From an uncultured Actinomycetota bacterium (GTDB lineage: Bacteria > Actinomycetota > Actinomycetes > JAFAQI01), in contig CAWIFV010000010.1 of assembly GCA_963835405.1 (NCBI GenBank), positions 15,150-79,149 on the forward strand: a DNA stretch of 64,000 bases, written 5' to 3'. Positions 4,442 through 55,030 of the stretch are shown piece by piece. The notes beneath the pieces were generated by a model, which worked only from the letters and a program-made list of their open reading frames with translations, was not told the DNA's origin and did not search any database. Each line of letters starts with the position of its first letter. The first letter of the stretch is position 1. The translations under genes were made by a program, and so were the position numbers.

Positions 4442-4506
4442 CCCGGCATCCACAGAACCGCCCGGGGAGGTGCCGGTGAGCGCCCGTCCCGGCGCAGGCT
4501 CGGCCG

Positions 4507-27068: not shown

Positions 27069-27226
27069 GACTCACCCCTCATTCGTTCGGGCAACCGCCC
27101 TTGACGCGGTTGTCCGGGTGACTCTTGCGCCGTCAATCGGGCTTGTCAAGGCGCCGTTCCGGTGATTGTCGAAAATTGGCTGTCGCGTTGGCTCAAGTTC
27201 CGCGCCGGAGTGACCGATAGGGGGTT

Positions 27227-30200
27227 GTGGCGGGGGGTTTCTCACGGGGCGGGCTGGTCTCACCGGGCTGGCTGGGCGGATCGCGCACGCGCGCGCTGTC
27301 CCGGTGGCTGCTGCCGGCGGGTGGCGCCGCCGCCGCCGTCGTCCTCGCCGCCGGCAGTGCCCACGCCGCCACCGCCTCGGGTGCCTACACCGGGCCGGCG
27401 AACCCCACCACCGCCGACACGCTCACCTGGGCCGTCACGACCGACGACCCCACGACGACGAGCTGCGAGCTCGACCGGGACGCCACCACGCTGGCGGGGC
27501 CCGAGGCCTGCTCGACGTCGTACAGCTACGACGTGGCCGGCGGCCAGCCGGGCACGTACACGCTCGTCGTCTACGGCGTCGCTGCCGCGGACGTCGTGCC
27601 CGGCACCACCACCGGCAGCGCGTCGGGTGTCACCGTCGCGCCGCCCGCCCCCACGCCGAGCGCGCCCCCCGCCTCGGCGAGCACCACCCCGAGCTGGACG
27701 CTCGGGCTGCCCACCGGTTACCCCTCCGGCACCTGCACCGTGACCGACGCCTCCAGCGCGGTCGTGGTCGGTCCCGAGGCCTGCACCAGCCCGTACCCGA
27801 GCGACCTCGGCGCCACCGCGGCGACCGGGGACTACACGCTCCACGTCACGGTCTCGGCCAACGGCGTCACCAGCGCCGAGGGCACCGCGACCTACACGCT
27901 CACGCCCCCGGCGCCCACCACGCCCACGATCAGCCGGGCCGCGGCCGTGGACAGCAACCCCACCCCGTCGTTCACGGTCACCGAGCCGGACGCGGACGCG
28001 ACGCTCACCTGCGCCGTCTCCGGCACGAGTGCCACGGTCTCCGCCTGCGGGGCCACCACCACGCTCGACCTGACCGCGGCGGCGGACGGCGTCTACACGC
28101 TCACCGTCACGGCCACCAACACAGCCGGGGGGACCTCCTCGGCCACCTTCGACTACACGCTCGACCGCTCCGCCCCCTCGACCGTGACCGTCACCGCACC
28201 ACCCTCGCCCGCCCAAGGCACCCAGCCGGTCTTCACCGTCGCCGAGAGCGACACCGGCGTCACCTTCACCTGCGTGCTGACCCGACCGGACAGCTCGACC
28301 CGGTCGGTCAGCGGATGTGGCGCGGGCCAGGTGAGCGTCACCCTCGGCGCCGGGGACGGGCTCTACACGCTCACCGTCACCGTGACCGACGCCGCCGGAA
28401 ACAGCACCGGCGGCAGCGCCTCCTACACGCTCGACAGCGCCGCGCCGACGACGCCCACGATCAGCCGGCTGAAGTCCGTCGACCGCAACCGCACCCCGTC
28501 GTTCACCGTCACCGAGCCCGATTCGGACGCCACCCTCTCCTGCACCGTCACCGCGCCCGCCACCGTGACGCTGTGCGGGTCGACCACGACGATCGACCTG
28601 AGCGGGCTGGTCGACGGCGTCTACACGCTGACCGTCACCGCCACGGACCCGGCCGGCAACACCTCGTCCGCCACGTTCGCCTACACCCTCGACACCGGCG
28701 CCCCCACGACCCCGACCATCACCCGCTCGAAGTCGGTGGACAAGACGCGCACCCCGTCGTTCACGGTCACCGAGCCGGACAGCAACGCCACACTGTCCTG
28801 CACCGTGACCGGGGCCGGGGCGTCCGTGACGACGTGCGGGCCGACCACGACGCTGAGCCTGACCGGCGCCGACGGCGACTACGTGCTGACCGTGACGGCG
28901 ACCGACCCGGCCGGCAACAGCTCGGCCGCCAGCTTCACCTACACGCTGGACACCGTCGCCCCCTCCACCCCGACCGTCAGCCGGTCGCCGTCGGTGGACC
29001 GGACGCGGACCCCGTCGTTCACGGTGACCGGCGTCGACGCGGACGCCACGCTGTCCTGCACCGTGACCGGCGCCGGGGCGTCCGTGACGACGTGCGGGCC
29101 GACCACGACGCTGAGCCTCACCGGCGCCGACGGCGACTACGTGCTGACCGTCACGGCCACCGACCCCGCGGGCAACACCGCGTCCGCGACCTTCACCTAC
29201 ACCCTCGACGCCACCCCGCCGACCAAGCCGACGGTCAGCCGGGCGACGTCCGTGGACAACGACCCGAACCCGTCGTTCACGGTCACCGAGCCGGACCCGG
29301 ACGCCACCCTGTCGTGCACCGTGAGCGGGGGCGCCGTTCTCACCCTCTGCGGCCCGACAACGACCCTTGACCTGTCCGGGCTGCCCGACGGCAGCTACGT
29401 GCTGACGGTCACGGCGACGGACGCGGTCGGCAACAGCATCTCGACGACCTTCACCTACACGTTCGACACCACCCCCCCGACCAAGCCGACCATCAGCCGG
29501 TCGAAGTCGGTGGACAAGAACCGGACCCCGTCGTTCTCGGTGACCGGCGTCGACGCGGACGCCACGCTGTCCTGCACCGTGACCGGGACGGGCGCGGGCG
29601 TGACGCTCTGCGGGCCGACCACGACGCTGAGCCTGACCGGCGCGGACGGCGACTACGTGCTGACCGTCACCGCCACCGACCCGGCCGGCAACACGACCTC
29701 GGCCACCTTCACCTACACGCTCGACACCACGCCGCCGCCCCCGCCCGCGATCGCCCCCGTCCCCGCCCGACTCGCCACGAAGCAGGTCACGGTGGGCATC
29801 AGCGACAGCGAGGCAGGAGTCGCCCTCACCTGCCTGCTCCGGGCGCCCGGCGGCGGGACGGTGTTCACCGGCACCTGCCCCGGCAGCGGCGGGTTCGACA
29901 CCACCGGCTTCGGCGACGGCATCTACACGCTGACCGTGACCGCCACCGACCCGGCCGGCAACTCCTCGAGCAGCCAGGTGAGCTGGGAGCGGGACACGAC
30001 CCCGCCGCCGCCGCCGGTGATCACGGGCCCGGGTGCGTTCACCAACGACACGACCCCCACGCTCGGCCTCAGCGACACCGAGACCACGGCGACGCTGACC
30101 TGCGAGCTGACGGGCCCGTCGGGGGCGAGCGTCTTCTCCGGCGGCTGCCCGGCCGACGGCACCTTCACGACGGACGACGGCGACGGCACCTACTCGCTGG

Positions 30201-32596
30201 TCGTCACCGCGACCGACGAGCTGGGCAACGCCTCGTCGAGCCAGACCACATGGGTGCTCGACACGGTGCCACCACCGGCGCCCGCGGTCGTCAAGCCGCG
30301 GGACCCGAGCAACCTCACCCAGCCGGCCGTCGGGATCAGCGACACCGAGAGCGGTGTCGTCCTCAGCTGTGTCCTGACCGAGCCGGGTGGCGGCACCGTC
30401 ACCTACGCCGCCTGCCCGGCCACCTTCGACACCCGCCCGTACGGCGACGGGCTCTACACCCTCGCCGTGACCGCGACCGACGCCGCCAGCAACACCACGA
30501 CGACGACCGTCACCTGGATCCGCGACACCCTGCCGCCGCCGGCGCCGACGGTGTCTCCTCCCGCACCGCTGACGAAGTCGCGCACGGTCACCCTCACGAT
30601 CAGCGACAGCGAGCCCGGCGTCGTCCTCACGTGCGTGCTGCGGGCACCGGACGGGTCGACCGTCTTCTCCGGCGCGTGCCCCGCCGACGGCCTCTTCGAC
30701 ACGACCGGGCACGGGGACGGCGTCTACACCCTCGTCGTGACCGCGACCGACGCGGCGACGAACTTCTCGACGACGACCGTCACCTGGACCCGCGACACCA
30801 TCCCGCCGCCGGTGCCTTCGGTCACCGGGCCGGCCAGGCAGCCGGCGCAGGACCGCGCGCCGGCGTTCACCGTCTCCGACACCGAGGCGGGCGTGACCTA
30901 CACCTGCACGGTCACCGGACCGGGAAGCGCCCGCGTGAGCGCGTGCGGGTCCACCTCCCGGCTCGACCTGACCGGCTCGCCGGACGGCACTTACACGCTG
31001 ACCGTCACCGCGACCGACCCGGCCGGCAACGTCAGCGGGTCGGCCTCCGCCGGCTTCACCCTCGACACCACGCCGCCGGTCACCCCCGCGGTCACGCCCA
31101 CCCCATCGCCCTCCCAGGGCCGGACCGTCACCTACACCAGCACCGGGGTGGAGCCGGGCGGCGTCCTCGCCTGCGCGCTCACGGGGCCCGCCGGGTCGAC
31201 GGTCACCGTCGCGTCGGCGTGCACCGCCACCGTCACGATCAACCTGGCCGGCCAGCCCGACGGCACCTACACCCTGTCCGTCACGGTCACCGACGCGGCG
31301 GGCAACGTCAGCAGCGCCGGGACCGCCAGCTACCGCCTCGACACCACGCCGCCGGCCGCGCCCGGCGTGCTGGTGCCGCCGAGCCCCGGCAACGACACCA
31401 CCCCGACGTTGACCATCGCCGCCGAGCCGGGCGCGACGGTCACCTGCACCATCGCCCGCTTCTTCAAGGTGGTCGGCGCGGTGACGTGCACGACCGACGG
31501 CACCCTCGACCTCGGTGCCTACCAGGACGGCGAGTTCGAGATCACCGTCACCGTCACCGACGCCGCGGGCAACGTCAGCCCGGCGACCACCGTCACCTAT
31601 CTCCTGGACACGCTCGCGCCGGTCACCCCGGAGCTCACCGAACCGGCGAGCCCGTCACCCATCGAGCGTCCGGAGTGGCTGTTCACCGCCGAGCCGGACG
31701 CCATCGCCACCTGCACGGTCACCGACGCCGCCGGCACCGTCGTCCAGGGTCCGGTCGCCTGTGCGGGGACGTTCACCGGAGCGTTCCGCCTGCTGCCGGA
31801 CGGCACCTACACGCTCAGCGTCGTCGTGACCGACGCCGCCGGGAACGCCTCGGTGCCCGCCCTGTCGGTGTTCGTGCTCGACCGGACCGCGCCGGTCCCG
31901 CCGACCGTGACGCCGCCACCGCCCTCCGGCAGCGACAAGACGCCGACCTGGAAGATCCGCGCCCCACGTGGTGCGGTGCTGACCTGCACGCTGCTGGGCG
32001 GCCGGTCCGTCCTGTACGCCGGGGAATGCCCGAGCGACGGCGTCTTCAGCCTCCGCCACCAGCCGGACGGCACCTACACGCTGCGGGTCACGGCGACGGA
32101 CAGCGCCGGCAACGTGAGCGCCGCGTCGGTGTCGGAATACGTCCTCGACACCGTCTCTCCGGCCGTGCCGCGCCTCGACTACGCGTCGCCGTCGCCGTCG
32201 ACCAACACCAACCCCTACTGGGGCTTCACCCTGCCGGCCGGCGCTGCCGGTCGCTGCCAGCTCACCCGCGACGGGACCGTGCTGGCCACCAAGACCTGTT
32301 CCGAGGCGGTCTCGTTCGACCTGTCCGGCCGCAGCCCGGGCACCTACGTGGTGGTCATCACCGCGGTGGACGCCGCGGGCAACACCAGCCGGTCGCTGCA
32401 GGTCAGCTACATCCTGGGCGCGCCGTCGTCGCCTCCGCCCCCGGCGTCCGGCGGTAGCGCTCCGCCGCCGCCAGCCTCGGCGGTGACGGCGGCCCGACCA
32501 CAGGTGGCGGCCACCACCGGTCCCACTCACCGGGCCCGGATGTCCTGCCGACGCCCGCCGCGGTCGAGCAGGCGATCGCCCGCATCGGGCAGCTGA
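27227..32596 (+). CDS. giant secreted tandem Ig-like-domain repeat protein (about 20 repeats of about 85 aa)
   Basis: Uninterrupted 1789-aa ORF. Signal-peptide-like N-terminus (RTRALSRWLLPAGGAAAAVVLAAGSAHA/ATASG). Repeats follow the pattern TPSFTVTEPD.DATLSCTVTG...CG.TTTL.L.G..DG.Y.LTVTATD.AGN....TF.YTLDT..P, each with two Cys. The C-terminus is Pro-rich. See the findings for a probable frameshift into ORF 32659..32904. Confidence 0.85.
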   Translation: MAGGFSRGGLVSPGWLGGSRTRALSRWLLPAGGAAAAVVLAAGSAHAATASGAYTGPANPTTADTLTWAVTTDDPTTTSCELDRDATTLAGPEACSTSYSYDVAGGQPGTYTLVVYGVAAADVVPGTTTGSASGVTVAPPAPTPSAPPASASTTPSWTLGLPTGYPSGTCTVTDASSAVVVGPEACTSPYPSDLGATAATGDYTLHVTVSANGVTSAEGTATYTLTPPAPTTPTISRAAAVDSNPTPSFTVTEPDADATLTCAVSGTSATVSACGATTTLDLTAAADGVYTLTVTATNTAGGTSSATFDYTLDRSAPSTVTVTAPPSPAQGTQPVFTVAESDTGVTFTCVLTRPDSSTRSVSGCGAGQVSVTLGAGDGLYTLTVTVTDAAGNSTGGSASYTLDSAAPTTPTISRLKSVDRNRTPSFTVTEPDSDATLSCTVTAPATVTLCGSTTTIDLSGLVDGVYTLTVTATDPAGNTSSATFAYTLDTGAPTTPTITRSKSVDKTRTPSFTVTEPDSNATLSCTVTGAGASVTTCGPTTTLSLTGADGDYVLTVTATDPAGNSSAASFTYTLDTVAPSTPTVSRSPSVDRTRTPSFTVTGVDADATLSCTVTGAGASVTTCGPTTTLSLTGADGDYVLTVTATDPAGNTASATFTYTLDATPPTKPTVSRATSVDNDPNPSFTVTEPDPDATLSCTVSGGAVLTLCGPTTTLDLSGLPDGSYVLTVTATDAVGNSISTTFTYTFDTTPPTKPTISRSKSVDKNRTPSFSVTGVDADATLSCTVTGTGAGVTLCGPTTTLSLTGADGDYVLTVTATDPAGNTTSATFTYTLDTTPPPPPAIAPVPARLATKQVTVGISDSEAGVALTCLLRAPGGGTVFTGTCPGSGGFDTTGFGDGIYTLTVTATDPAGNSSSSQVSWERDTTPPPPPVITGPGAFTNDTTPTLGLSDTETTATLTCELTGPSGASVFSGGCPADGTFTTDDGDGTYSLVVTATDELGNASSSQTTWVLDTVPPPAPAVVKPRDPSNLTQPAVGISDTESGVVLSCVLTEPGGGTVTYAACPATFDTRPYGDGLYTLAVTATDAASNTTTTTVTWIRDTLPPPAPTVSPPAPLTKSRTVTLTISDSEPGVVLTCVLRAPDGSTVFSGACPADGLFDTTGHGDGVYTLVVTATDAATNFSTTTVTWTRDTIPPPVPSVTGPARQPAQDRAPAFTVSDTEAGVTYTCTVTGPGSARVSACGSTSRLDLTGSPDGTYTLTVTATDPAGNVSGSASAGFTLDTTPPVTPAVTPTPSPSQGRTVTYTSTGVEPGGVLACALTGPAGSTVTVASACTATVTINLAGQPDGTYTLSVTVTDAAGNVSSAGTASYRLDTTPPAAPGVLVPPSPGNDTTPTLTIAAEPGATVTCTIARFFKVVGAVTCTTDGTLDLGAYQDGEFEITVTVTDAAGNVSPATTVTYLLDTLAPVTPELTEPASPSPIERPEWLFTAEPDAIATCTVTDAAGTVVQGPVACAGTFTGAFRLLPDGTYTLSVVVTDAAGNASVPALSVFVLDRTAPVPPTVTPPPPSGSDKTPTWKIRAPRGAVLTCTLLGGRSVLYAGECPSDGVFSLRHQPDGTYTLRVTATDSAGNVSAASVSEYVLDTVSPAVPRLDYASPSPSTNTNPYWGFTLPAGAAGRCQLTRDGTVLATKTCSEAVSFDLSGRSPGTYVVVITAVDAAGNTSRSLQVSYILGAPSSPPPPASGGSAPPPPASAVTAARPQVAATTGPTHRARMSCRRPPRSSRRSPASGS
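28793..29691 (+). repeat. three near-identical ~125-bp segments inside the giant gene (about 28793-28917, 29051-29175, 29567-29691)
   Basis: Read directly: ctgtcctgcaccgtgaccgg.gccggggcgtccgtgacgacgtgcgggccgaccacgacgctgagcct.accggcgccgacggcgactacgtgctgaccgt. recurs with only a few substitutions. The first two copies are 258 bp (86 codons) apart. Confidence 0.8.

Positions 32597-32900: not shown

Positions 32901-32904
<4 letters not shown>
32659..32904 (+). CDS. TM-helix-containing ORF, probably the frameshifted C-terminal tail of the giant repeat protein
   Basis: The frame is open from 32458 (own translation ...PGPDVLPTPAAVEQAIARIGQLTETVRQAGHKAAHAAVDTAQHVLPAMRD...). It contains the hydrophobic helix FPLMLLFVVIAFLVM. 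Its TGA overlaps the ATG of the cyclase gene (ATGA at 32901-32904). Confidence 0.5.
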
Positions 32905-34462
<1,558 letters not shown>

Positions 34463-34466
<4 letters not shown>

Positions 34467-35524: not shown

Positions 35525-35706
35525 ACGAGGACTAGTCGGGTCGGTGCGGGTGTCCTGACCCGTTGTCGTCAGCCTCATCATCCGTTCGGCTAATTCTTCC
35601 GTGCATTCGGGTGTATCTGCGTCATATCGACACGGGATGCTTTGACTCGCCGGAGATATCGCGTGACGGTGCAGTCACCGTCGGCCGTCGGCTGGCGGAG
35701 TGCGCA

Positions 35707-35796
35707 CCCGGGGAGGCGTCGACACCGCGACCGAGCAGTCGGTCACCTTGGCTCGGGGGAGCCGCGGTCGCGGCGAGCCACTGGTGGGACCGGCCC
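35707..35796 (+). promoter_or_regulatory. conserved structured 5' leader element, copy 3 (diverged)
   Basis: CCGCGACC (35725-35732) pairs with GGTCGCGG (35766-35773). The enclosed hairpins are ACCGA-gcag-TCGGT and GGCTC-gggg-GAGCC. The tail is GGCGAGCCACTGGTGGGACCGGCCC (35772-35796). It ends 32 nt before ATG 35829. Confidence 0.6.
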
Positions 35797-35828
35797 CGGC
35801 ACCGCGTCGGACGACAGGGGTGCCCGGG

Positions 35829-38800
35829 ATGATCGCAAACTCACATCGGCTCCGGAGGCTGTTCGCCGGGGCCGTGAGCCTCGCCGTGCTCGCCAGCACC
35901 GCGGTCGCTTTCAGCCCGTTCGGCAGTTCGGCCGGCGCCGCCATCACGGTGATCCCATCCAACTACTTCACGGTGCAGGACGGGACGGCGAACGACGAGC
36001 CCGGGCAGAAGGACCTCACCCAGATGGGCCGGGACGACACCAGCGCCTCCCGGCTGCTGGTCTTCTGGAGCTGGGACGACACCGACTTCTCGGGCCAGGC
36101 CGGCGATGCCTGCGCGCTGTTCAGCGCCACGTCCGACGGACATGTGACCTTCGCCATCTGCGGCGAGGTCGTCAACGGCGCCACGCCCGGCACGGTCGTG
36201 CTGAACGCCGGGTTCCCGACCGGCTACACCTGCACCCCCACGGTGCACCCGCTGGACCGCTGCGACTCGGGGTTGGCGGCGTCCATCGGTACGACGACGG
36301 CGGGGCCCATCAGCGGCGGCGGCACCGACCTCGTGACCCAGACCGACCCCTTCAACAAGCCGTCGGGGACCAACACCACGCTCGCTCTCGACATCCAGCG
36401 CAGCGCTCTTCCGTCCGGGGTCAACCTGGTGAACGTCTGCTCCTACCCGTCGATCGCCAACGGCGCCAACAACGACCCGTCGGACTGCATCGTCACCCCC
36501 GGTGGTGGCTTCCTGCAGATCGTCAAGAACGCGACCGGCGGCGACCGCACGTTCGACTTCACGATCAACCCGCTCGCCGTGGCCCGGTCGGTGACGACGT
36601 CCGGGGGCACCGGCACGAGCGCGCCGTACACCGCCGCGGCCGGGACGGGCTTCGAGGTCACGGAGTCCGTGCCCAGCAACTGGGACCTGGACTCGGCGTC
36701 GTGCCTGTTGCAGGACGGCACCACCTCGACCGGGACGTTCCACTCCGCGACGGACAAGGTCGACGGCATCACGGTCGAAGTCGGGCGGCTCACCACGTGC
36801 ACCTTCGCCGACGTCAAGGCCGACCCGAAGCTCCATCTCGTGAAGTCGACGACCACGGCCAACTTCAGCGCCGTCGGCGACACCATCGACTACACCTACA
36901 CGCTGACCAACACCGGCAATGTGCCGCTGACACCGCCCTACTCGGTCAGTGACGACAAGACGACGGTCTCGTGTGACCAGACACCCGACCCTCTGCCCGC
37001 TGGCGGGGTCACCGAAGTCAAGTGCACGGCCAGTTACACGGTCGATCAGGCCGATCTCGACGCCGGTTCGGTGACGAACGAGGCCACGGCGAAGGCGAAG
37101 TACAACGGCAACGACGTGCCGTCCAACCAGGCCAAGCTGACCGTCAACGCAATGCGGAGCCCTGCTCTCGGTCTCGACAAGGACAGCACCGACAAGGCGA
37201 ACGGCTACTCCAGCGTCGGCGACGTTCTGAACTACACCTACGACCTCACGAACATCGGCAACGTCACCCTCGACGCGCCGACTCGGTCGAGGACAAGGTC
37301 GAGAACACGACCCCGCTGACGGTCACTTGCCCGGTGGTGCCACTGCACCTGGCGCCAGGTGACCCCGCCGTCCAGTGCACTGCGACCTATGTGGTCACTC
37401 AGGACGACCTCGACCGCGGCTCGGTGACCAATGTTGCGAAGGGCCACGCCAAGTTCCTGGGGAAAGACGTGGCGTCGGCGACCGACTCGGTCACGATCGA
37501 CGCCAGCCAGAGCAAGTCGGTCATGCTGGAGAAGAAGGTCACGGAGCCGACCTACGATCACCTGGGTGAGGTCATCCAATACACCTACACGCTGACCAAC
37601 ACCGGGAACGTCACCCTGCATTCGCCATACAGCGTGGACGACGACAAGGTAGACGTCCTCGGGTCGGTCGATTGCTCGAACGGCCCGACCGACCTCGCTC
37701 CTGGGGGGCACTTCGACTGCTCGGCCACATACAAGATCACGCAGGCCGACCTCGACGCCGGCTCGCTGACCAACAATGCTCTCGGCCACGCCACGTTCGG
37801 CGGCAAGACCGTCGACTCCAACCCCGCCCAGAAGACGATCACGGCAATCCTGATGCCTGCCGTCTCGTTGGCGAAGTCGGCGGCCGAGCCCAGCTATAGC
37901 ACCCCCGGTACGGTGCTGCACTACACATACATTCTGACCAACACTGGAAATGTCACCTTGTCGGCTCCGTTTGCCGTGACGGATGACCACATCGCGACCG
38001 TCACCTGCGGCCAGCTTCCAGCGAGTCTCGCCCCGAGTGACCATGTCACCTGCACCGGGGCATACTCGGTCACGCAGTCGGACATCGATGCGGGGTCCGT
38101 GACGAACCACGCCACGGGATCGGCGGTCTTCGGGGTCACCACGATCACGTCGCAACCAGCCCAGGCCACGGTCCCGGCAGTGCGGGCCCCCGCCCTGACG
38201 CTCGTGAAGACCGCGCTCACCGCGGACTACGCGGCGGTGGGCGACGTCCTCGACTACACCTACACGCTGACCAACACCGGCAACGTGTCGCTGAGCGCGC
38301 CGTACGCCGTGGGCGACGATCTGATCGCCTCGGTCGACTGCTCGTCCGGGCCGGCGTCGCTGCCGCCGGGCGCGAGCTTCGACTGCACCGGCAGCTACGC
38401 CGTGACGCAGGCAGACCTGGACGCGGGCGCGGTCGTGAACCACGCGACCGCGACGGCCCACCAGCGTGGCGGGGTCGTCACGTCCAACCCGGGCGAGGCC
38501 ACCGTGCCGGCGGTCCAGGGGCCGGCGCTGAGCCTGGTCAAGAACGCGGCCGAAGCGTCGTACAGCGGCGCCGGGGACCAGCTGCACTACACCTACACGC
38601 TGACCAACTCCGGCAACGTGTCGCTGAGCGCGCCGTACGCGGTCGCCGACGACTGATCGCTACCGTCGCCTGCCCGGACACGCCCGCGAGCCTCGCGCCG
38701 GGGGAGCGGTCGCATGCACCGGGACCTACGACGTGACGCAGGACGACGTCAACGCGGGCAGTGTCATCAACCACGCGACGGCGTCGGCGACGTTCGGCGG

Positions 38801-39404
38801 CAATGCCGTCGGGTCCAACGAGGCCCAGGCCACCGTGCCCGCCATCCAGGACCCGCTCCTGACGCTGTCGAAGTCGGCGGACAAGGACTCGGTCACCTAC
38901 GGTGAGGAGCTCACCTACACGGTCTCGGCGACCAACACCGGCAACATCGACCTGACCGGTGTCGTGGTCAGCGATGCGATCCCGGACGGCACGACCTACG
39001 TGAAGGGCTCCGCGACTCCGGCCGCGATCGCGTCGTACGACGCCGGCACCGACGCGGTGAGCTGGACGGTCGGCGATCTCGCGGTCGGCGAGTCGGTCCG
39101 TGGGCTGACGTTCACGGTGACGGTCGACACGCCGGACTTCGACCCGACGGTGGGGTTGCCGGTCAGCACGATCGACAACGTCGCACTCGTCGAGGCGGAC
39201 TCCGTCGAGCCGGCGCCGTCGAACCACGTGAAGACGCCGGTCGTCGCCGTCCTCGGCATCAAGGAGGAGCGTCCGGAGCTGCCGTTCACCGGCTCCGCGC
39301 TGCCCATCCCACTCGCCTCCGGGCTGGCGGTGCTCATGATCCTGGCCGGTGCGCTGCTGACCGGATCCGTTCGCCGCCGCCGGTCTGGAGCGTTCGCCGC
39401 GTAG
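35829..39404 (+). pseudogene. LPXTG-anchored surface protein with prealbumin-like domain and about 8 DUF11/DUF7507-type repeats, 3 frame breaks (about 37270, 38652, 38712)
   Basis: Signal peptide MIANSHRLRRLFAGAVSLAVLASTAVA. Repeats follow Y.YTLTNTGNV.L....V.DD...V.C........L.PG....C...Y.VTQ.DLDAGSV.N across ORFs 35700..37319, 37022..38656 and 38733..39404. The C-terminal sorting signal is LPFTGS + TM + RRRR. Confidence 0.8.
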
Positions 39405-39648: not shown

Positions 39649-39956
39649 GGCAACTCCAGGTGTTCGACGCGGGGGAGACGTTGGGCAGTTGCAGTCTGCT
39701 CACCGGACCGGCGATGGCTCAAGGGAGGTACGCCGGGAGGTGCCACCAACGCGGGTCGACCGGAAGTCGGGCGCTGCGCAGCGGACGCCGCCGACCGGCG
39801 CGACGGCTGATGCGGCTGTCAAGCTGTGTCTGGATCGTCGTCCACAGATGCGGTGTTGGGTTCGGATCCTCCATTGATGCCCTGACTTCGGCTGGTTAGT
39901 GTGCCGCCACCCGGAGGGTCGTGGGCCCCCGGTTGCGTGCACTCGGGGAGCCGGCG

Positions 39957-41222
39957 ATGGACTCGACAGCGGTCGTGGAGGAGGAGGTCCGCGAGCTCGT
40001 CCGCCGCCGCGGGCTCGACCCGGCCGCCGACGCCGCGGCGATCCGCCGGCTGGTCGAGGAGGTCATCGCCGACTACGACGAGCGGTCGCTGACCAGCTCG
40101 CTGCCGCCGCTGGCCGACCCGCCGCCGGCGGCCCGCGCAGGTCTACGACGCGGTCGCCGGGTTCGGGCCGCTGCAGCCCTACCTCGACGATCCCGAGGTC
40201 GAGGAGATCTGGCTGAACGAGCCCGGCCGGGTGTTCGTCGCCCGTCGCGGCCGGAGCGAGCTGACCACGACGATCCTCACCGCGGGCGAGGTCCGGGACC
40301 TCGTCGAGCGGATGCTGAAGTCCTCCGGCCGTCGGGTCGACCTGTCGAGCCCCTTCGTGGACGCGATGCTCGCCGGACGGGTCCCGGCTGCACGTCGTGA
40401 TCCCCGACATCACCCGGCTGCACTGGGCGTGAACATCCGGAAGTTCGTCGTCCCGGCCCATGCCCTCGACCAGCTCGTCGAGCCTCGGCACGCTACCCGC
40501 GCAGGCGGCGCGGTTCCTCGAGGCTGCCGTCGCCGCCGGGCTCAACATCGTCGTCGCCGGCGGCACGCAGGCGGGCAAGACGACGATGCTCAACTGCCTT
40601 GCCAACGCGATCCCGCCGCGGGAGCGGGTCATCACCTGCGAGGAGGTCTTCGAGCTTCGAATCGCCGCTGCCCGGACGTCGGTCGCGATGCAGACCCGGC
40701 AGCCGAGCCTGGAGGGCACCGGCGAGATGCGGCTGCGCCGGCTGGTCAAGGAGGCGCTGCGGATGCGTCCCGAGCGGATCATCGTCGGCGAGGTCCGGCA
40801 GGAGGAGGCGCTCGACCTGCTCATCGCCCTCAACTCCGGGATCCCGGGCATGGCACGATCCACGCCAACTCCGCTCGGGAGGCGTGACGAAGCTGTGCAC
40901 GCTGCCGCTGCTCGCCGGCGAGAACGTCAGCCACGCGTTCGTCGTACCGACCGTTGCCGCGAGCATCGACCTCGTCGTTCACATCGCGTGCGCGATGCGT
41001 CCGGGCAGCGCCGGGTGCGCGAGATCGTCGCGGTGCCCGGCCGGGTCGAAGGGCGACGTCATCGAGACGGCCGACATGTTCACGACCCGAGACGACCGGC
41101 TGGTCCGGGCAGAGGGCTGGCCGCCGCACCTCGACCGGTTCGCGCGCGCCGGCTGTGACGTGGCCGCCCTGCTGAACGACGCCTCGCGCACACCGGCTCG
41201 CGGGTCGATGGTGGCCGGCTGA
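39957..41222 (+). pseudogene. CpaF/TadA-type pilus assembly ATPase, at least 5 frame breaks
   Basis: Fragments in three frames: MDSTAVVEEEVRELVRRRGLDP, EIWLNEPGRVFVARRGRSELT, NIRKFVV, Walker A GGTQAGKTTMLN, RIIVGEVRQEEALDLL, HANSAREA. Ends at TGA 41220-41222. Confidence 0.8.
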
Positions 41223-42086
41223 TGGGCTCGGTCATCGGGCTGCGTCTTCGGCGTCGGGCTGCTGCTGATCTGGCGCAGCGGCCCGCGCAAGCCGCCGCCC
41301 CGCCGGACATCCGCCGCTCGCGCACCGAGCGCACCGCCGAGCTTCTCGCCCAGGCCGGGTACGCCGCGATCCGGCCCGAGCAGCTCTACGCGCGTGTGCG
41401 CCGGCACCGCGCTGGCGGCCGGCGGCCGTCGTCGGTGTGGCCACCCGGTCCGCCAGCATCGCCGTGGCGTTCGGCACGTTCGCCGCCTACGCGCCGGTCG
41501 CCCTGGTCAGGGCGCGGCGCCGGCGCCGCGCCGTCGAGCTGCGGGAGCTGTGGCCGGAGGTCGTCGACAACCTCGCGTCCGCGGTCCGTGCCGGGTTGTC
41601 GCTGCCGGAGGCCGTCGCGCAGCTCGGCGTCCGCGGGCCGGAGTCGCTGCGGGAGCCGTTCCAACGCTTCGGCGCGGACTACCGCGCCACCGGCCGTTTC
41701 GGCGCGTGCCTGGACCGGTTGAAGACGAGCCTCGCCGACCCGGTGGCCGACCGGATCGTCGAGTCGCTGCGGGTCGCGCGCGACGTCGGCGGCAGTGACC
41801 TCGGCCGGCTGTTGCGCACGCTCTCGCCAGTTCCTGCGCGAGGACGACCGGACCCGTGCCGAGCTCGAGACCCGGCAGGGCTGGACGGTGAACGCGGCCC
41901 GGCTCGCGCTCACGGCTCCCTGGGCGGTGCTGGCTCTGCTCGCGATGCGGCCCGAGACCGTCGCGGCCTACGACACCGCGGCCGGCGTGCTGGTGCTGCT
42001 CGTCGGCGGCGGCGTGTCGCGTCGTCGCCTACCGGCTCATGATGCGCATCGCCCGGTTGCCCGAGCAGGAGCGGGTGCTGCGATGA
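41222..42086 (+). pseudogene. TadB-like type II secretion system F-family membrane protein, about 3 frame breaks
   Basis: ORFs 41222..41722, 41437..42042 and 41795.. carry LRELWPEVVDNLASAVRAGLSLPEAVAQLG...ADRIVESLRVARDVGGSDLGRLL. Ends with an ATGA overlap onto the next gene. Confidence 0.7.
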
Positions 42087-43026
42087 CCCCGGTCGCCACC
42101 GGTGCGCTGTTCGGCCTCCTCGCGTCGGGTCGGGGTCGTGCTGGCGGTCGCCTCCAGCCCGCCGCTGCGCCGCCCGCGACTGGCCGACCGGCTCGCGCCC
42201 TACCTCCGCGACGCACCTCGCCCGTCCCGGCTGCTCGACCGGGCGCACGCCTCGACCCCGTTCCCGACCGTCGAGCGGCTGCTCGGTCCGGTGCTGCGCG
42301 ACGCCGCGCGCGTCGTCGACCGCGCCGTCGGAGGCACCGCGTCGGTACGTCGACGGCTGGACCAGGCGGGCCGGAACATGACCGTCGAGCAGTTCCGGAT
42401 CGAGCAGGTTCTGTGCGGCGCGGCCGGGCTGCTCGTCGGGCTGCTCGGTGCCCTCGCCGCGACCGTGCACGGGGGGCCGGCGAGCCCGGTCCTGTTCCTC
42501 GTCCTGTGCGCCGGGCTCGTCACCGCCGGCGTCCTCGGCCGCGACCGGCTGCTCTCCGCCGAGGTCGCCCGGCGCGAGCGGCGGATGCTGGTCGAGTTCC
42601 CGACCGTGGCCGAGCTGCTGGCGCTGGCCGTCGCCGCCGGCGAGGGCGCGGTCGGTGCGCTGGAGCGGGTCGCCCGGCTCTCGACCGGCGAGCTGGCGCG
42701 GCGAGCTCGGCCGGGCGCTGGCCGACGCCCGCGCCGGCGCCTCCCTCGTCGCCGCCCTGGAGGGGATGGCCGCGCGGACCTCGCTACCGGCTCTGGCCCG
42801 GTTCGTCGACGGGCTCGCGATCGCCATCGAGCGCGGCACGCCGTTGGCCGAGGTGCTGCGCGCACAGGCCGTCGACGCGAGCGAGGAGCAGCGCCGGGCG
42901 TTGCTCGAGGTCGGTGGACGCAAGGAGATCGCGATGCTCGTCCCGGTCGTCTTCCTCGTGCTGCCGGTCACCGTCGTCTTCGCCCTGTTCCCGGGCTTCT
43001 ACAGCCTCTCGCTCTCCGTTCCCTGA
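42083..43026 (+). pseudogene. TadC-like type II secretion system F-family membrane protein, 2 frame breaks (about 42125, 42700)
   Basis: ORF 42102..43172 (EFPTVAELLALAVAAGEGAVGALERVA) joins ORF 42448..43026 (LARFVDGLAIAIERGTPLAEVLRAQA...IAMLVPVVFLVLPVTVVF). Confidence 0.7.
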
Positions 43027-43063
43027 ACGTCCCCTCGTCCCGACGTACCGGAAAGGAACCCGC

Positions 43064-43273
43064 ATGCTCCCCTCCGTCCTGGTCGCGGTGTGGCACTTCG
43101 TGGGCCGGCGGCTGCCGGTTCTTCGCTCGGACCGAGGTGACGTCCCGGGGTGGGTGCTCATCACGCTCATGACCGCCGGCATCGTCACGGCGCTCTGGAT
43201 CGTGGCCGAGCCCAAGATGGCCAGCATCCTGGACGGCGCGCTCAGCATCTCCGGTGACCCGAACGCCAAGTGA
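43064..43273 (+). CDS. small hydrophobic Flp/DUF4244-like putative pilin
   Basis: In-frame ATG 43064 within ORF 41795..43273, 69 aa: MLPSVLVAVWHFVGRRLPVLRSDRGDVPGWVLITLMTAGIVTALWIVAEPKMASIL... It occupies the position of the pilin gene in actinobacterial tad loci. The canonical G/xxxxEY motif is absent. Confidence 0.5.
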   Translation: MLPSVLVAVWHFVGRRLPVLRSDRGDVPGWVLITLMTAGIVTALWIVAEPKMASILDGALSISGDPNAK

Positions 43274-43689
43274 GCCCCGGGCCGACGGGGGACCTCGGCG
43301 GCGGGGGCGTGACCGGCGACCGGGGCTCGGCCGCCGTCGACTTCGTCCTCGTCGGGTCGCTCGTCACGCTGATGTTCCTCGCCGTGCTCCAGCTCGGTGT
43401 CGACTACCACGTGCGCAACGTCCTGGCCGCGTGCGTGGCCGAGGGGGCGCGGTACGCCGCCAACGCCGACGTGGCCGACCCCCAGGCCGGGGCCGACAAG
43501 GCCAACGAGCTGATCCGCGCGTCGCTGGGGGAGTCGTTCGCGCGTGCCGAGGCGCCGGACGCGGCCGAGACGGTCGCCGGTGCACCGGTCGTCACCGTCA
43601 CGGTCCGGGCCCGGCTGCCGTTGCTCGCGTGGTTCCTGCCGGTCGGGCCGACGGTCACCGCGACCGGGCATGCGCTGGTCGAGCCATGA
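43270..43689 (+). CDS. TadE-like pseudopilin
   Basis: ORF 43270..43689 has GSAAVDFVLVGSLVTLMFLAVLQLG (TadE N-terminal pattern). Start/stop overlaps occur on both sides. Confidence 0.65.
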   Translation: MSPGPTGDLGGGGVTGDRGSAAVDFVLVGSLVTLMFLAVLQLGVDYHVRNVLAACVAEGARYAANADVADPQAGADKANELIRASLGESFARAEAPDAAETVAGAPVVTVTVRARLPLLAWFLPVGPTVTATGHALVEP

Positions 43690-44168
43690 CGGTCGCGAGA
43701 GTCGCGAACGCCGTGACCCGCCGGCGGGGCGATGCGGGCAGCGCCATCGTGGAGTTCGTCTGGCTCGCCGTGCTGTTGATGATCCCGCTCGTCTACGTCG
43801 TCCTCGCCGCGGTGTCGGTGCAGCGGACCGCGTTCGCGGAGTCGGCGGCGGCCAGGGAGGCGGCGCGGGCCTACGCGACGGCCGGGTCGGACGCCGAGGG
43901 GGAGCGGCGCGCCGAGGCGGCCGTCGCGCTGGCCATGCACGACCAGGGCGTCGACTGGCAGCCGACCGGGCGGGTCGTCGCCTGCGGTGCCTGCGGCTAT
44001 GAGCCGGGGTCGACGTTCACGGTCGACCTGCGCACGGTCGTGGCGCTGCCGTTCGTGCCCCGCTGGATGTGCGGGGATCGCTGCGCCGCGGGCATCCCGG
44101 TGAGCGCGCACCACCGGGAGCGGCTCGACTGCTACGCCGGCACCGGCATAGCGGGCACCTCGTGCTGA
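43686..44168 (+). CDS. TadE-like pseudopilin
   Basis: In-frame ATG 43686 within ORF 43254..44168, with RGDAGSAIVEFVWLAVLLMIPLVYVVLA. Confidence 0.6.
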   Translation: MTVARVANAVTRRRGDAGSAIVEFVWLAVLLMIPLVYVVLAAVSVQRTAFAESAAAREAARAYATAGSDAEGERRAEAAVALAMHDQGVDWQPTGRVVACGACGYEPGSTFTVDLRTVVALPFVPRWMCGDRCAAGIPVSAHHRERLDCYAGTGIAGTSC

Positions 44169-44647
44169 AGCCGGGCCGGGACGACGGGCAGCTCACGCTG
44201 CTCGTCATCGGTTTCTGCCTGGTCGCGGCGACGCTCGTCGTCGTCGCGGTCGACGTCTCGAAGGTGTTTCTCGCCCGGCGCGCGCTGTCGTCGGTCGCGG
44301 ACTCGGCGGCACTGCAGGCCGCGCAGGCACTCGACCGCGAGGCGATCTACGCGGGCCGGGCCGGGGGCTGCGGCTCGCTGCTGCCGTTGGACCCGGCGGC
44401 GGTCCGGCAGTCCGTCTGGTCGGCCGTCGACGACGACCTCGCCGACCTCCGGCAGACGTTCGCCGCCGTCGAGCCCCCGGCGGTGGACGTGGCCGCCGGC
44501 ACCGTGACCGTGCGGCTGACCGGGCAGGTGGCTGTGCCGTTCGGCCGCGTCCTCGCGCTCCTGCTGCCCGGGCACCCGGACGGCCGGGTGGCCGTCGGGG
44601 TCACGGCGTCGGCGCAGTCACCCCTGACGACCCCGGGCGGCTGCTGA
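44162..44647 (+). CDS. TadG-like/pilus-assembly membrane protein
   Basis: GTG 44162 within ORF 44069..44647, with DDGQLTLLVIGFCLVAATLVVVAVDVSKVFLARRAL. Last gene of the tad cluster. Confidence 0.55.
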   Translation: MLKPGRDDGQLTLLVIGFCLVAATLVVVAVDVSKVFLARRALSSVADSAALQAAQALDREAIYAGRAGGCGSLLPLDPAAVRQSVWSAVDDDLADLRQTFAAVEPPAVDVAAGTVTVRLTGQVAVPFGRVLALLLPGHPDGRVAVGVTASAQSPLTTPGGC

Positions 44648-44669
44648 GCGACGTCAAGCGGGCAGGCGC

Positions 44670-46227: not shown

Positions 46228-46343
46228 CAGCGGCGCCTCAGCCGTTCGACGACTGGATCGTCCAAACGGGTGATTTCGCTAGGGACAATAAGGTCATTCG
46301 CGACGTTCGGCTTGACCGGTGTTGATCGCGAACCCACGCTGGC

Positions 46344-46436
46344 GTGACCGGGGGGCTACGAACCGCGACCGGGACACGGTCACCCTTCCCCGATCCCAGG
46401 GGAACGGTCGCGGGGAGCCAGTGGTGAGACCGACCC
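46344..46436 (+). promoter_or_regulatory. conserved structured 5' leader element, copy 1
   Basis: CCGCGACC (46363-46370) pairs with GGTCGCGG (46406-46413). The enclosed hairpins are ACCG-ggaca-CGGT and TTCCCC-gatccca-GGGGAA. The 25-nt tail GGGGAGCCAGTGGTGAGACCGACCC (46412-46436) is identical to 48484-48508. It ends 27 nt before ATG 46464. Confidence 0.65.
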
Positions 46437-46463
46437 ATAGACGGTAAGAGGGGTTGGTCGGTC

Positions 46464-48250
46464 ATGGCAGGCATCTCCCGGTGTCGCCGCTGGTTCTTCT
46501 CGCGGCAGACCGCACGCATCGGTGCGGCGGGGCTGCTCATCGCGTCGGTGACTCTCGGTGCCGCCACCATGGCGAGCGCCGCCCCCCCGGCCAACGGCAA
46601 CAACGGCACGGTCCAGATCGGGACGGGTAACGGCAACGACCCGCACCTGACCTGCCCCATCGCCATCAAATGGTCCGGCTTCGACGCCGGCGTGACCAAG
46701 GACTACGACGTCGCCTTCGGCGGCATCAGCCCCACTGGCGGAAGCCCGGCCGCGGTCGCCCCGTCGGACCCGACCAGCGGTTCCTTCACGACCACGGCCC
46801 AGACGCTCAACTACTGGCTGCAGATCACGGGCGGCACGCCGAAGAAGAACGGCGAGTACCACGTCAACATCACCGTCACGACGCAGCTTGCCGCCAACAC
46901 GGACACCAAGTCCAAGACCGTGTGGTTGAAGAACTGCGTGGGCAGCGGCACGGTCAGCGTCGCCGGCGCCTGCAACACCAACAAGGACGGCTACGACTGG
47001 ACCGTCACCGCCACCCCCGCCGTCGGTTCGCCGCCGGTCACCGGCAGCTGGACGAGCACCACGACCAACGGGACCTACGCCACCGACGCCGCCGGCGACG
47101 GGACGTTCTCCACCACCGGTGTGGGCGAGAACACGGTGACGCTCACCGTCAACGAGGCGGGCTGGACGGTCTCCCCGTCCGGCACACCGACCGCCACGGC
47201 GGTGGCGTGCGCAAGCGGCAACACCCCTTCCGATCTGAGCCTGTCGGCGGCGTGCTCGCCGACGACGGCCGGCCAGGTGGACTGGACCATCACCAACCCG
47301 GCCGGCAACCCGACCGTCGACGTCGTTGGCGTGAGCCCGACCGGCGCGGTCACCACCTCCGTCGCGCCCACCACGCTCGCCGCCGGCGCATCGGCCACGT
47401 TCACCACCGATGCTCCGCTGTCGACCGGCAACCTGACCGCGAGCGGGACGACCAACCCGGGCGGGGTCACCCTCACGTCCAACACGCTCGGCTTCGCCGG
47501 CACCTGCACCACGGGCTCGGCCGAGACTCCCGCGACGGTGACCTTCAGTGACACCTGCACGGTCGTCCACGTGGTGTTCACCAGCGCCGGACCAGCACAC
47601 GACCCGGTTCGACGTCACCGAGCCGGACGGCAGCACCGACACCGTCGTCGGCAGCGGCACCGCCGACTACCCGGCCGACGCCACGGACAAGCACATTCAG
47701 GTGAAGTACGACGGCCAGAGCGCCAACCACACGTGGACGGCGCCGGCCGGCTGCGGCAACGGCAACCCGGGCGTCGCGGACCCGAAGGTCTCGTCCAGCA
47801 AGGCCTGCAAGACCGGGATCACCGTCGTGCTGAGCAACATGGCCGGCACCGCCGACGTGGTGTTCACGGTCACGGGCGTCAACGGCAAGAGCCACGACGT
47901 CGCGGTCCGCGCCGGGCAGATCGTGCGGAAGAGCTACTTCGTGACGGAGGACAGCACCGGTGAGGTCACCGTGTCCGCCCCGGGCCTGGCGACGAGGACC
48001 ATCACCTACGCCAAGGACTGCGCCACCGTCCTCGCCGAGAAGACAGACGAAGACACCGAAGACGACGAAGACACCGACGGTGAAGCCGGTCGTGCAGGGC
48101 GAGAAGGTGACCCAGCTGCCGTTCACCGGTGACTCGACCAAGAGCGAGGGGATGGTCGCGGCCGCACTGCTCTTCCTCGGCTCGGTCCTCTGCTGGGTCG
48201 GCAGCCGTCGGCGCCGACCGGCGCGAGCCGGTGCCTGGCGCGAGGGCTGA
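46464..48250 (+). pseudogene. LPXTG-anchored surface protein, 2 frame breaks (about 47585, 48065)
   Basis: Signal peptide (IGAAGLLIASVTLGAATMASA). The body is Thr/Gly-rich and lies in ORFs 46464..47963 and 47548..48132. The sorting signal LPFTGD + TM + RRRR lies in ORF 47960..48250. Confidence 0.7.
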
Positions 48251-48423
48251 CCGACAGGCGACGCAGCGGGCGGTCCCGAGACATCGGGGCCGTCCTCTTC
48301 GCTGTGTCCGGGCGGGTAGCCAGGCAGGGGTCTGCGGCCGCCGGTCCGAATACGGACATATCCGGCTACCTCCCTTGACGTACGGTTACCGACCGGCAAC
48401 CGTGTGAGCGCGCCCTGCCCGGG

Positions 48424-48508
48424 CGTGGGGGGCATGGATCCGCGGCCGGTACGCCGGTCACCGTTCCGCGAGGAGACGGCCGCGGGGAGCCAGTGGTGAG
48501 ACCGACCC
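48424..48508 (+). promoter_or_regulatory. conserved structured 5' leader element, copy 2
   Basis: CCGCGGCC (48440-48447) pairs with GGCCGCGG (48478-48485), a compensatory A:T to G:C change relative to copies 1 and 3. The second hairpin is TTCC-GCGA-GGAG. The 25-nt tail is identical to copy 1. It ends 24 nt before ATG 48533. Confidence 0.65.
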
Positions 48509-48532
48509 GTCGCGCAGCACGGGAGGGTCGCC

Positions 48533-49483
48533 ATGGGCCGCACGTCACGAGTCGCCGCCGGATGCATCGCCGCGGTGGCGATCGCGCCCTGGATCGGCGC
48601 GGCGGTCGCCGTCGGTGAGGTCAACCCGACGACGTACGACGGCAACGCGACCAGCTGCGCCGACGTCGACCTTGCCGGCGACAGCCAGGTCGGCGTCGGA
48701 GGCTCCGGCGGCCTCGACCAGGACGGCTTCACCGTCACCAGCGACGGCCAGTACCTCAACGTCACCGACACGCCGGACGGCACCGATATCGACGCCGTCG
48801 TGGTCAAGGCCGGCGACGCCTACAACGTCTACGCGTCGGCGATCGACGACATGCGGGGCCCCGGCGTCGGCAAGAACGGCAACGTCCCCACCATCAGCCA
48901 CTGGTTCCTCTGCTACCCCCCGGCCGACGAGGACACCGGCGGCGGGGGCGCGGGCGGCGGCGACCAAGGTGCCGGCGGCGGCGACCAAGGTGCCGGCGGC
49001 GGCGACCAAGGTGCCGGCGGCGGCGACCAGGACACCGGTGGGGACCAGGACACCGGTGGGGACCAGGGCGCGGGCGGCGGCGACCAGGGTGCCGGCGGCG
49101 GCGACCAGGACACCGGCGGGGACCAGGGCGCCGGGAACAACACCGACGGGGATCAGCCGGGCGGTGGCGGCGGCGACACGGCCGGCGGTGAGGTGGCCGG
49201 CAACGGGGCGGACAAGGCCTCGAGCGATGACGGCACCCAGGTGCTCGGCACCAAGATCACCCGGCACCCGCACCGCTCCCAGCAGACCGGCGGCGGGCGG
49301 ACGGTGCAGACACCCTCGGTGAGTGCGACGGGGGCCGAGGTAGCGGGGGGCGAGGTGGCGGCGCTGCCGTTCACGGGCGCCGCGAGCGCGCGGCTCCTGA
49401 GCTTCGCGCTGGCGCTGCTCGCGTTCGGGTCCGGGCTCGTGCTGGTGAGCCGCCGGCCGGCAACCGGCCGGCGCCGCGCCTGA
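48533..49483 (+). CDS. LPXTG-anchored surface protein with GGDQGAG/GGDQDT tandem repeats
   Basis: ORF 48533..49483 has a signal peptide, a globular N-terminal domain, low-complexity repeats, and LPFTGA + TM + RRPATGRRRA. Confidence 0.8.
   Translation: MGRTSRVAAGCIAAVAIAPWIGAAVAVGEVNPTTYDGNATSCADVDLAGDSQVGVGGSGGLDQDGFTVTSDGQYLNVTDTPDGTDIDAVVVKAGDAYNVYASAIDDMRGPGVGKNGNVPTISHWFLCYPPADEDTGGGGAGGGDQGAGGGDQGAGGGDQGAGGGDQDTGGDQDTGGDQGAGGGDQGAGGGDQDTGGDQGAGNNTDGDQPGGGGGDTAGGEVAGNGADKASSDDGTQVLGTKITRHPHRSQQTGGGRTVQTPSVSATGAEVAGGEVAALPFTGAASARLLSFALALLAFGSGLVLVSRRPATGRRRA
48944..49136 (+). repeat. in-frame tandem repeats, 21-nt (GGDQGAG) and 18-nt (GGDQDT) units
   Basis: Read directly: ggcggcgaccaaggtgccggc occurs 3 times, then ggggaccaggacaccggt units, then further 21-nt units. 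Confidence 0.85.
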
Positions 49484-54614: not shown

Positions 54615-54971
54615 GGGGGTGAACGGTTTCGACTTCGGACGTCGACTCAAGGGAAGCGGGTCGAGGATGTCGCGTGATCTCGTAAATCCATCGCGGCAAC
54701 TTCAATAAGTGCCGATAACAGCGCACTCGCCAAAGCTGCTTGATTAAGTAGCTGGCTGTCAGCCCAGGGATGCCCTCGCTCTGGGACCTGGCATCGATAG
54801 AGGGCTCCACCGATCGGCCCGGTCACGGGGCCGGTCGGGAAATCAAACAGTGACTGAGCCCGCAGCGACTTGCCTGCGAGATCGCTGGGGCTGAGAAAAC
54901 TGCAGCAGGCTGCACCCGGAGAAGCCTTGACGAGCCGCCGAAGGACCCGGGTTCGATTCCCGGCACCTCCA
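54615..54971 (+). ncRNA. ssrA: tmRNA (ssrA)
   Basis: The 5' GGGGGTGAACGGTTTCGAC pairs with the 3' ...GGTTCGATTCCCGGCACCTCC-A (T-arm plus acceptor stem). The tag reading frame resumes at GCC 54711: ADNSALAKAA, stop TGA 54741-54743. It directly follows the smpB region. The 3' CCA is not encoded (actca). Confidence 0.88.
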
Positions 54972-55030
54972 CTCACCGCGTGATCTTCGCCGCTGTGACC
55001 AGTTTTCGGCGCGACACGCCGTTCAAGTGG

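Follow-up and report, generated by a model that had tools for sequence, protein, structure and literature searches.

Within the 64,000-nucleotide (nt) stretch of Actinomycetota DNA analyzed here (contig CAWIFV010000010.1; hereafter the window, to whose positions all coordinates refer), a leader element of about 90 nt stands in front of three genes for putative sortase-anchored surface proteins. We find that the three elements are almost certainly members of the RNA family RF03169, a variant of the cyclic di-GMP (c-di-GMP) class II riboswitch. Our overall interpretation, to which we give a probability of roughly 55%, is that these c-di-GMP-II-GAG aptamers act as translational ON leaders of the surface-protein genes, with c-di-GMP or a very close cyclic dinucleotide as ligand.

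The family assignment was made with Rfam cmscan at gathering thresholds, the cut-off for RF03169 being 40 bits. All three copies match RF03169 (c-di-GMP-II-GAG riboswitch aptamer, clan CL00127) over model positions 1-86 of 86, with E-values of 5e-10 to 3e-7. Aptamer copy 1 spans 46342-46444 (core 46350-46436, + strand; 62.4 bits), copy 2 spans 48419-48517 (core 48427-48508, + strand; 60.3 bits, full length) and copy 3 spans 35703-35804 (core 35711-35796, + strand; 51.8 bits, full length). Other CL00127 families overlap the same sites with lower scores and are displaced by RF03169; on these sequences the best clan member is not canonical c-di-GMP-II (RF01786), which scores below the variant model. 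The original prediction, made by a model from the letters alone, had read the element as a discrete, structured 5′ leader acting in cis in the manner of a riboswitch, a description that the match supports, and we regard it as very likely that the elements are cis-acting, ligand-responsive leaders. The novelty that it implied is lost: it had itself named a confident Rfam hit as the outcome that would make the element a known one, and, given 52-62 bits against a cut-off of 40, the repeated leader is not a new RNA class. The RNA family is thus already known, while the three copies before sortase substrates, their prfB-ftsEX position, an extra hairpin in the P3 loop and a GGG sub-variant are new, as are, at the level of detail, the frameshifts in target genes 1 and 3.

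Reading the sequence confirmed the element at three sites (46344-46436, 48424-48508 and 35707-35796), with gaps to the start codon of 27 nt for copy 1, 24 nt for copy 2 and 32 nt for copy 3, so that the predicted number of copies, their length of about 90 nt and their distance of 24-32 nt from the start codons are all borne out. The 25-nt 3′ block common to copies 1 and 2, its slightly different version in copy 3 and the helix CCGCGRCC/GGYCGCGG in all three were likewise found as described. The window contains this block three times in degenerate form (GAGCCNNTGGYGRGACCGNCC), whereas 0.10 occurrences are expected from shuffles. Moreover, a covariance model of our own, constructed from the copies and applied to the 64 kb with filters off, detects these three and no others, at 92-97 bits (96.5, 97.5 and 92.2 bits for copies 1, 2 and 3), the next best match reaching 19.8 bits. 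Similarity between the loci at the DNA level is confined to the aptamer (its 3′ block) and ends at the aptamer borders: the upstream regions have no alignable block in common, and the three downstream proteins, compared with one another, show no significant similarity (E >= 0.09). The model and shuffle counts, together with the restriction of similarity to the aptamer, indicate a discrete, non-random element rather than a by-product of gene duplication, as had been proposed. A weak match to the model (15 bits) at 17224-17297, upstream of a cpaB-like gene, is devoid of the conserved block and was rejected.

Fold and covariation of the leader RNA

In copy 1, the structure line of RF03169 places the 5′ strands of P1 (GGG) and P2 (GGC) at 46350-46352 and 46354-46356, all parts of this copy lying on the + strand. 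They are followed by a kink-turn-like bulge, UAC then GA (46357-46361), which, judged at the level of sequence, would face the GA of GGA-GCC at 46415-46416. The 5′ strand of P3, CCGCGACC (46363-46370), pairs with GGUCGCGG (46406-46413) to form a helix of 8 bp. Its loop contains both the pseudoknot loop strand CGGUCACC (46377-46384), complementary at 8 of 8 positions to 46423-46432, and the extra hairpin UUCCCC-GAUCCCA-GGGGAA (46386-46404), an insertion in the Rfam model. On the 3′ side, again following the structure line, the P3 strand is succeeded by GGA and by the P2 strand GCC (46417-46419). Then come the 3′ strand of the pseudoknot, GGUGAGACCG, with the GAG signature (46423-46432), and the P1 strand CCC (46434-46436), both of which also constitute an anti-Shine-Dalgarno sequence. 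P1 is therefore GGG/CCC and P2 is GGC/GCC, and the pseudoknot has 8 of 8 complementary positions in each of the three window copies. The combination of GGC-NNN-GA on the 5′ side with GA-GCC on the 3′ side is shared by the three copies and almost all relatives and predicts a kink-turn between P2 and P3, a feature that belongs to the c-di-GMP-II consensus (PMC12564702).

This fold revises two elements of the original prediction. What had been called an invariant unpaired block is paired, the 3′ strands of P2, of the pseudoknot and of P1 all lying within it, and the first hairpin proposed, GACCG/CGGUC, is an artefact of ignoring the pseudoknot: it appears only in pseudoknot-free folds and is in competition with P3 as well as with the pseudoknot. 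In this lineage, GACCG, the sequence of the pseudoknot 3′ strand, is also found at the 3′ end of the 5′ strand of P3 (46367-46371), and the loop sequence CGGUC (46377-46381) could pair locally with it, replacing the pseudoknot; the same holds for copies 2 and 3. Such local pairing could be an alternative (apo) conformation built into the RNA, or a coincidence.

The second, variable but self-complementary hairpin of the prediction is real and corresponds to the extra hairpin of the P3 loop. Directly 3′ of the pseudoknot strand, it is found in the three window copies and in about a dozen Actinomycetes-type relatives; across 14 Actinomycetes-type copies it keeps the same place with unrelated sequence, different each time and always able to fold, and it is lineage-specific. 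The pseudoknot 3′ strand itself reads UGGUG-A-GACCG in copies 1 and 2 and UGGUG-G-GACCG in copy 3. At what we take to be the three positions that give the variant its name, GGG thus replaces GAG in copy 3 (35783-35792, UGGYGGGACCG). The GGG sub-variant, which might alter ligand affinity or specificity, is also present in six Chloroflexota copies (loci L015, L095, L024, L038, L006 and L051 of the set of relatives described below).

To collect relatives, species-representative genomes were scanned once for the 3′ block; of the 120 loci returned, 84 contain full-length copies according to our covariance model, about 105 in all. The copies come mostly from Chloroflexota (Limnocylindria and others), Thermoleophilia, Acidimicrobiia and metagenome-assembled genomes (MAGs) of Actinomycetes; pattern matches in Alphaproteobacteria and Streptomyces had no model match and were set aside as chance. 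Rfam assigns 29 relative copies in 18 re-checked loci to RF03169. The search pattern itself accounts for part of the conservation of the 3′ block among relatives. Over 88 aligned copies, 93.4% of cells are paired, compared with 80.6% in shuffled alignments and at most 54% with partners slid, in an alignment that was fitted to the model, which favours structure. P1 and P2 each have 98% of cells paired in these 88 sequences. Two-sided changes occur in 11 of 14 pairs, including all eight of P3, and none of 500 shuffles reaches the observed values. The pseudoknot was no part of the search model; its position 6 covaries, a loop A or G being matched by U or C in the 3′ tail (52 G:C, 31 A:U, 1 G:U and 2 other), and a loop U or C opposite A is mismatched in 49 of 86 copies.

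The position of the RNA is equally regular. An open reading frame (ORF) starts at most 60 nt downstream in 82 of 98 copies (median 28 nt), compared with 29 of 98 in the antisense control; the aptamer sits on the sense strand, in the 5′ untranslated region (UTR), directly before the ORF. Two of the loci have arrangements of their own. In L045, two divergent GAG aptamers (3491-3590, − strand, and 4726-4821, + strand) flank an RNase P RNA gene (4103-4482, − strand), and each precedes a small LPATG or LAHTG protein. In L104, from an Actinomycetota MAG, a canonical c-di-GMP-I aptamer (RF01051, 5523-5615, − strand, 41.7 bits, cut-off 35) and the GAG-variant aptamer (1203-1289) are about 4 kb apart.

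Predicted switching mechanism and regulated genes

A TTGAC(C/G/T) hexamer is located 25-55 nt upstream of each aptamer (46312-46317, 48375-48380 and 35642-35647) and could be a −35 element placing the transcription start at the 5′ edge of the aptamer; no matching −10 consensus was found, and a promoter scan returned no sigma-70 consensus promoters. Between aptamer and start codon no terminator was found in any of the three copies. Since, in addition, the spacer is only 24-32 nt long, control is expected at the level of translation.

The platform of copy 1 (46446-46466, + strand) consists of the Shine-Dalgarno sequence AAGAGGGG (46446-46453), a spacer and the ATG at 46464, and that of copy 2 (48521-48535, + strand) has the Shine-Dalgarno sequence GGGAGGG (48521-48527) and an ATG at 48533. 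In the minimum-free-energy fold of copy 1, which is pseudoknot-free and does not enforce the aptamer, aptamer nt 75-87 pair with 46451-46463, so that 13 of the 21 platform nt are paired to the 3′ tail. The CCGACC/GGTCGG pairing, which had been pointed out as an expression-platform-like occlusion of the initiation region, is part of this fold. For copy 2, 16 of 21 platform nt are paired in the corresponding fold, mostly to aptamer nt 67-87. In both copies, the aptamer nt that pair with the platform are the very ones taken up by the pseudoknot and P1 when the aptamer is folded, and relatives show similar anti-Shine-Dalgarno pairing (e.g., CCUGUCCC with GGGAUAGG).

Based on these folds, we propose a model in which the aptamer would be transcribed as the 5′ leader of the mRNA for a sortase-substrate surface protein. 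In the ligand-free state, the 3′ tail of the aptamer, comprising the 3′ strands of the pseudoknot and P1, would pair with the region of the Shine-Dalgarno sequence and start codon and block initiation; upon ligand binding, the tail would be locked into the pseudoknot and P1, freeing the ribosome-binding site. A rising messenger would then raise the production of wall-anchored adhesin-like proteins. Because the ligand-stabilized aptamer fold would free the ribosome-binding site, the model predicts an ON switch, and this translational ON logic appears probable from the modelled structures. Canonical c-di-GMP-II riboswitches act as ON switches (PMC7583470).

The genes that would be controlled in this way all encode proteins with a signal-peptide-like N terminus and an LPFTG motif followed by a hydrophobic segment and an RRRR-type tail, the features of a sortase substrate, genes 1 and 3 with two frame corrections each. 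Gene 1 (46464-48250, + strand) encodes a signal peptide and, at its C-terminal end, LPFTG (48116), a hydrophobic stretch and a basic tail, with no Pfam domain; it is read across two frame changes, its open frames being 46428-47963, 47542-48132 and 47945-48250. Gene 2 (48533-49483, + strand) is intact and encodes 316 amino acids, including a signal peptide and the sorting signal LPFTG (49364). It likewise has no Pfam domain, and its layout comprises an unannotated N-terminal domain of about 130 amino acids and then a Gly/Asp/Gln-rich repeat linker; an exact look-up of the product in public assemblies returned no record. The large gene 3 (35829-39404, + strand) combines a signal peptide, a SpaA_4 prealbumin-like domain, many DUF7507 repeats, DUF11 and LPFTG at 39279, and shifts frame twice (near 37285 and 38628-38656). 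Of the three LPXTG genes in the original prediction, all thus reach LPFTG, but only gene 2 does so in an intact ORF. The pilus gene cpaF (40297-41186) is also split, over three frames, its orthologue in L102 being a single ORF, and long uninterrupted genes are found elsewhere in the window (27221-32596, prfB, ftsEX and the GGDEF gene). The single-base frame changes in gene 1, gene 3 and cpaF are either assembly indel errors or real decay of surface and pilus genes.

In Actinomycetota relatives, the proteins downstream of the aptamer have signal peptides together with LPFTG, LAHTG, LPATG, LPRTG or LADTG signals. The window proteins have no close counterparts among the proteins downstream of other aptamers, except for shared DUF7507 repeats, and are not orthologous to them, so that the regulated cargo is variable. 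Such heterogeneous, non-metabolic cargo fits a riboswitch for a signalling molecule.

Candidate ligands and alternative explanations

The parallel with the canonical regulon, the shared scaffold and the neighboring cyclase and Tad pilus genes lead us to favour c-di-GMP or a near relative as ligand; for c-di-GMP itself, an assignment made by analogy, we put the chances at about even. The cyclase gene (32901-34466, + strand), 1.2 kb upstream of copy 3, encodes a multi-pass membrane protein with a C-terminal GGDEF domain, a GGEEF active site and an RxxD I-site and, to judge from these motifs, shows that the organism makes c-di-GMP. The original prediction had noted this gene correctly and had drawn from it and the adhesins the speculative idea of a second-messenger ligand. 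That idea was right about the scaffold, which is a variant of the c-di-GMP-II aptamer, but the nearby gene is no conserved companion: a tblastn search with the window GGDEF domain against the 84 aptamer-bearing loci (584 kb, within 8 kb) found it in 0 of 84, even at E <= 1. We therefore rejected GGDEF as a conserved partner of the aptamer, its adjacency in the window not being a family trait.

This absence is one of several observations that weigh against our interpretation. At the level of the fold, the outer part of the RF03169 P1 is mismatched in all three copies, with only the inner 3 bp forming. At the level of the switch, the ribosome-binding site of copy 3 pairs mostly just 3′ of the aptamer, with only 3 nt of P1 involved; the z-scores of the platform hairpins are modest (+0.4 to −3.0, mostly −0.9 to −2.8); and the complementarity between C-rich P1 strands and a G-rich Shine-Dalgarno sequence is partly compositional. 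Regarding the targets, two of the three genes are frameshifted in this sequence, and the downstream genes of Chloroflexota are different, encoding small secreted proteins, SRPBCC, SnoaL and Kelch proteins. As for the ligand, Rfam separates RF03169 from RF01786 within CL00127, and in the literature searched no ligand of the GAG variant is validated. Weinberg et al. (2017) reportedly described the GAG variant class, with variants singled out for differing ligand-contacting nucleotides, and their abstract is said to state that the variants “might recognize different bacterial signaling molecules.” According to a 2025 review, there are still only two validated classes of c-di-GMP riboswitch.

These points about the ligand would fit a changed specificity, in which the same RNA would work as the same cis-acting switch and sense 3′3′-cyclic GMP-AMP (3′3′-cGAMP), cyclic di-AMP (c-di-AMP), linear pGpG or an undescribed dinucleotide instead of c-di-GMP. 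We consider this possible but rather unlikely. The Rfam split, with the window copies scoring best on the variant model, speaks for it, the c-AMP-GMP-sensing variants of c-di-GMP-I offer a precedent (PMC9295807), and the lack of a GGDEF gene near the 84 related loci and the Chloroflexota cargo, unlike the classic c-di-GMP regulon, point the same way. The cargo of Actinomycetota, however, with its sortase-anchored proteins and adjoining Tad genes, is that of canonical c-di-GMP-II, and no candidate synthase of another messenger was seen in the window. The c-di-GMP-I aptamer that neighbors a GAG aptamer in L104 would fit two signals, but C. difficile has class I and class II aptamers for one ligand, so that such co-occurrence is not diagnostic.

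The lack of a validated ligand in the literature searched could also mean that the leader is no small-molecule sensor and has kept the c-di-GMP-II fold as a protein-binding site or as an element of RNA stability or thermosensing. Variation at the presumed pocket nt would agree with this, GGG being present in copy 3 and six others and the loop mismatch in 49 of 86 copies. Yet the strict conservation of pseudoknot and junction in two phyla, set against very diverse cargo, is the usual signature of a metabolite aptamer, the scaffold is a proven ligand-binding fold, and we saw no conserved neighboring regulator gene; a non-sensing leader is therefore improbable. More improbable still, to the point of being barely credible, is an element acting as DNA, namely a transcription-factor operator, a dispersed repeat or a mobile-element remnant. 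The element is indeed repeated, GC-rich and partly palindromic, it lies upstream of functionally related genes, and the TTGAC hexamers place it near likely promoters. Selection for DNA binding, however, would not explain compensatory changes that keep the helices and the pseudoknot, and the strong strand bias relative to the downstream ORF (82/98 versus 29/98 antisense) also speaks against such an element; in addition, neither terminal repeats nor a transposase were seen, and the similarity between copies stops at the aptamer borders.

Most descriptions of c-di-GMP riboswitches concern Clostridia and Proteobacteria rather than high-GC Actinomycetota. The three natural RNAs of the window, including the GGG sub-variant, come with clear sortase-anchored, adhesin-like targets, a simple translational platform and a conserved position. 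If the ligand is c-di-GMP, the wall-anchored surface proteome of Actinomycetota would here be controlled by c-di-GMP at the level of RNA; if it is another molecule, the locus gives access to a new signal. The latter idea, that the GAG variant is a receptor for a different and possibly undescribed nucleotide second messenger and not a c-di-GMP sensor, is a tentative one that we hold to be doubtful. If true, the signal would control the sortase-dependent surface proteome in soil Actinomycetota and secreted, SRPBCC and SnoaL proteins in Chloroflexota, and the multi-copy prfB-ftsEX locus would be a ready regulon for identifying it.

Genomic setting and comparison with known systems

The order prfB, one or two units of aptamer and surface-protein gene, ftsE-ftsX is conserved in five related loci (L114, L102, L100, L023 and L011) from MAGs labelled Frankiales and Mycobacteriales, whose PrfB proteins are 65-83% identical to that of the window, so that the window belongs to an Actinomycetes relative of these MAGs. 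In these loci the aptamer and its position are kept, and the surface-protein cargo varies between genomes. In the window, a transfer-messenger RNA (tmRNA) gene (54615-54974, + strand; RF00023, 165 bits) lies downstream of ftsE/ftsX and completes the usual prfB-ftsEX-smpB-ssrA neighborhood, within which copies 1 and 2, together with their genes, form an insertion. Between copies 3 and 1 are Tad/Flp pilus genes (39900-44650, + strand) encoding T2SSE/CpaF, T2SSF/TadBC, TadE-like and TadG-like proteins, and the order tad-prfB-aptamer is found in L102 as well. A second pilus piece (17346-19366, + strand) encodes RcpC/CpaB and a ParA-like ATPase. A further likely surface protein of 1791 amino acids, with about 13 Big_13 immunoglobulin-like repeats, is encoded at 27221-32596 (+ strand), with no aptamer upstream. 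A sortase-like TLxTC motif was not found in any plausible frame of the window, in agreement with the earlier statement that it has no sortase gene.

Compared with c-di-GMP-II-GAG (RF03169) as modelled, the window copies have the same P1, P2, kink-turn and P3 architecture with a loop-to-tail pseudoknot, the same conserved 3′ block (GAGCCNNUGGYGAGACCGNCC) and the same 5′-UTR position. They differ from it by the extra P3-loop hairpin, by GGG in copy 3 and by the outer half of the model P1, which is unformed.

Canonical c-di-GMP-II (RF01786) reportedly goes back to Lee et al. (2010), with 3Q3Z as its structure. It shares with the window copies the clan, the overall fold (kink-turn, pseudoknot and triple-helix pocket), probably the ON logic, which we infer here, and the kind of target, sortase-anchored adhesins and pili. 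Canonical members regulate the sortase substrates CD2831 and CD3246 as well as type IV pili in C. difficile (PMC11477304) and COG4932 surface anchors in Paraclostridium (PMC9481103); their reported affinities for c-di-GMP range from 200 pM to 2 nM. Unlike the canonical class, which occurs mainly in Clostridia, the GAG variant is found in high-GC Actinomycetota and in Chloroflexota, and its pocket nt would differ, to judge from the Rfam split. Canonical examples were also sought in viral contigs with a pattern based on 3Q3Z; the six loci examined gave no Rfam match. Many viral contigs (L123, L129, L149, L150, L152, L156 and others) match GGCAC-N-GTGCAACCGAC over the same 39-nt span; these matches are another conserved sequence, probably coding, and are unrelated to the aptamer.

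A more distant parallel is provided by the c-AMP-GMP (GEMM-Ib) riboswitches, which have an unrelated fold (GEMM-I), occur in Geobacter and its relatives and control another regulon, so that the comparison is by analogy only. They show that a cyclic-dinucleotide scaffold can have its specificity re-tuned by few substitutions in the pocket (PMC9295807), as might be the case for the GAG variant.

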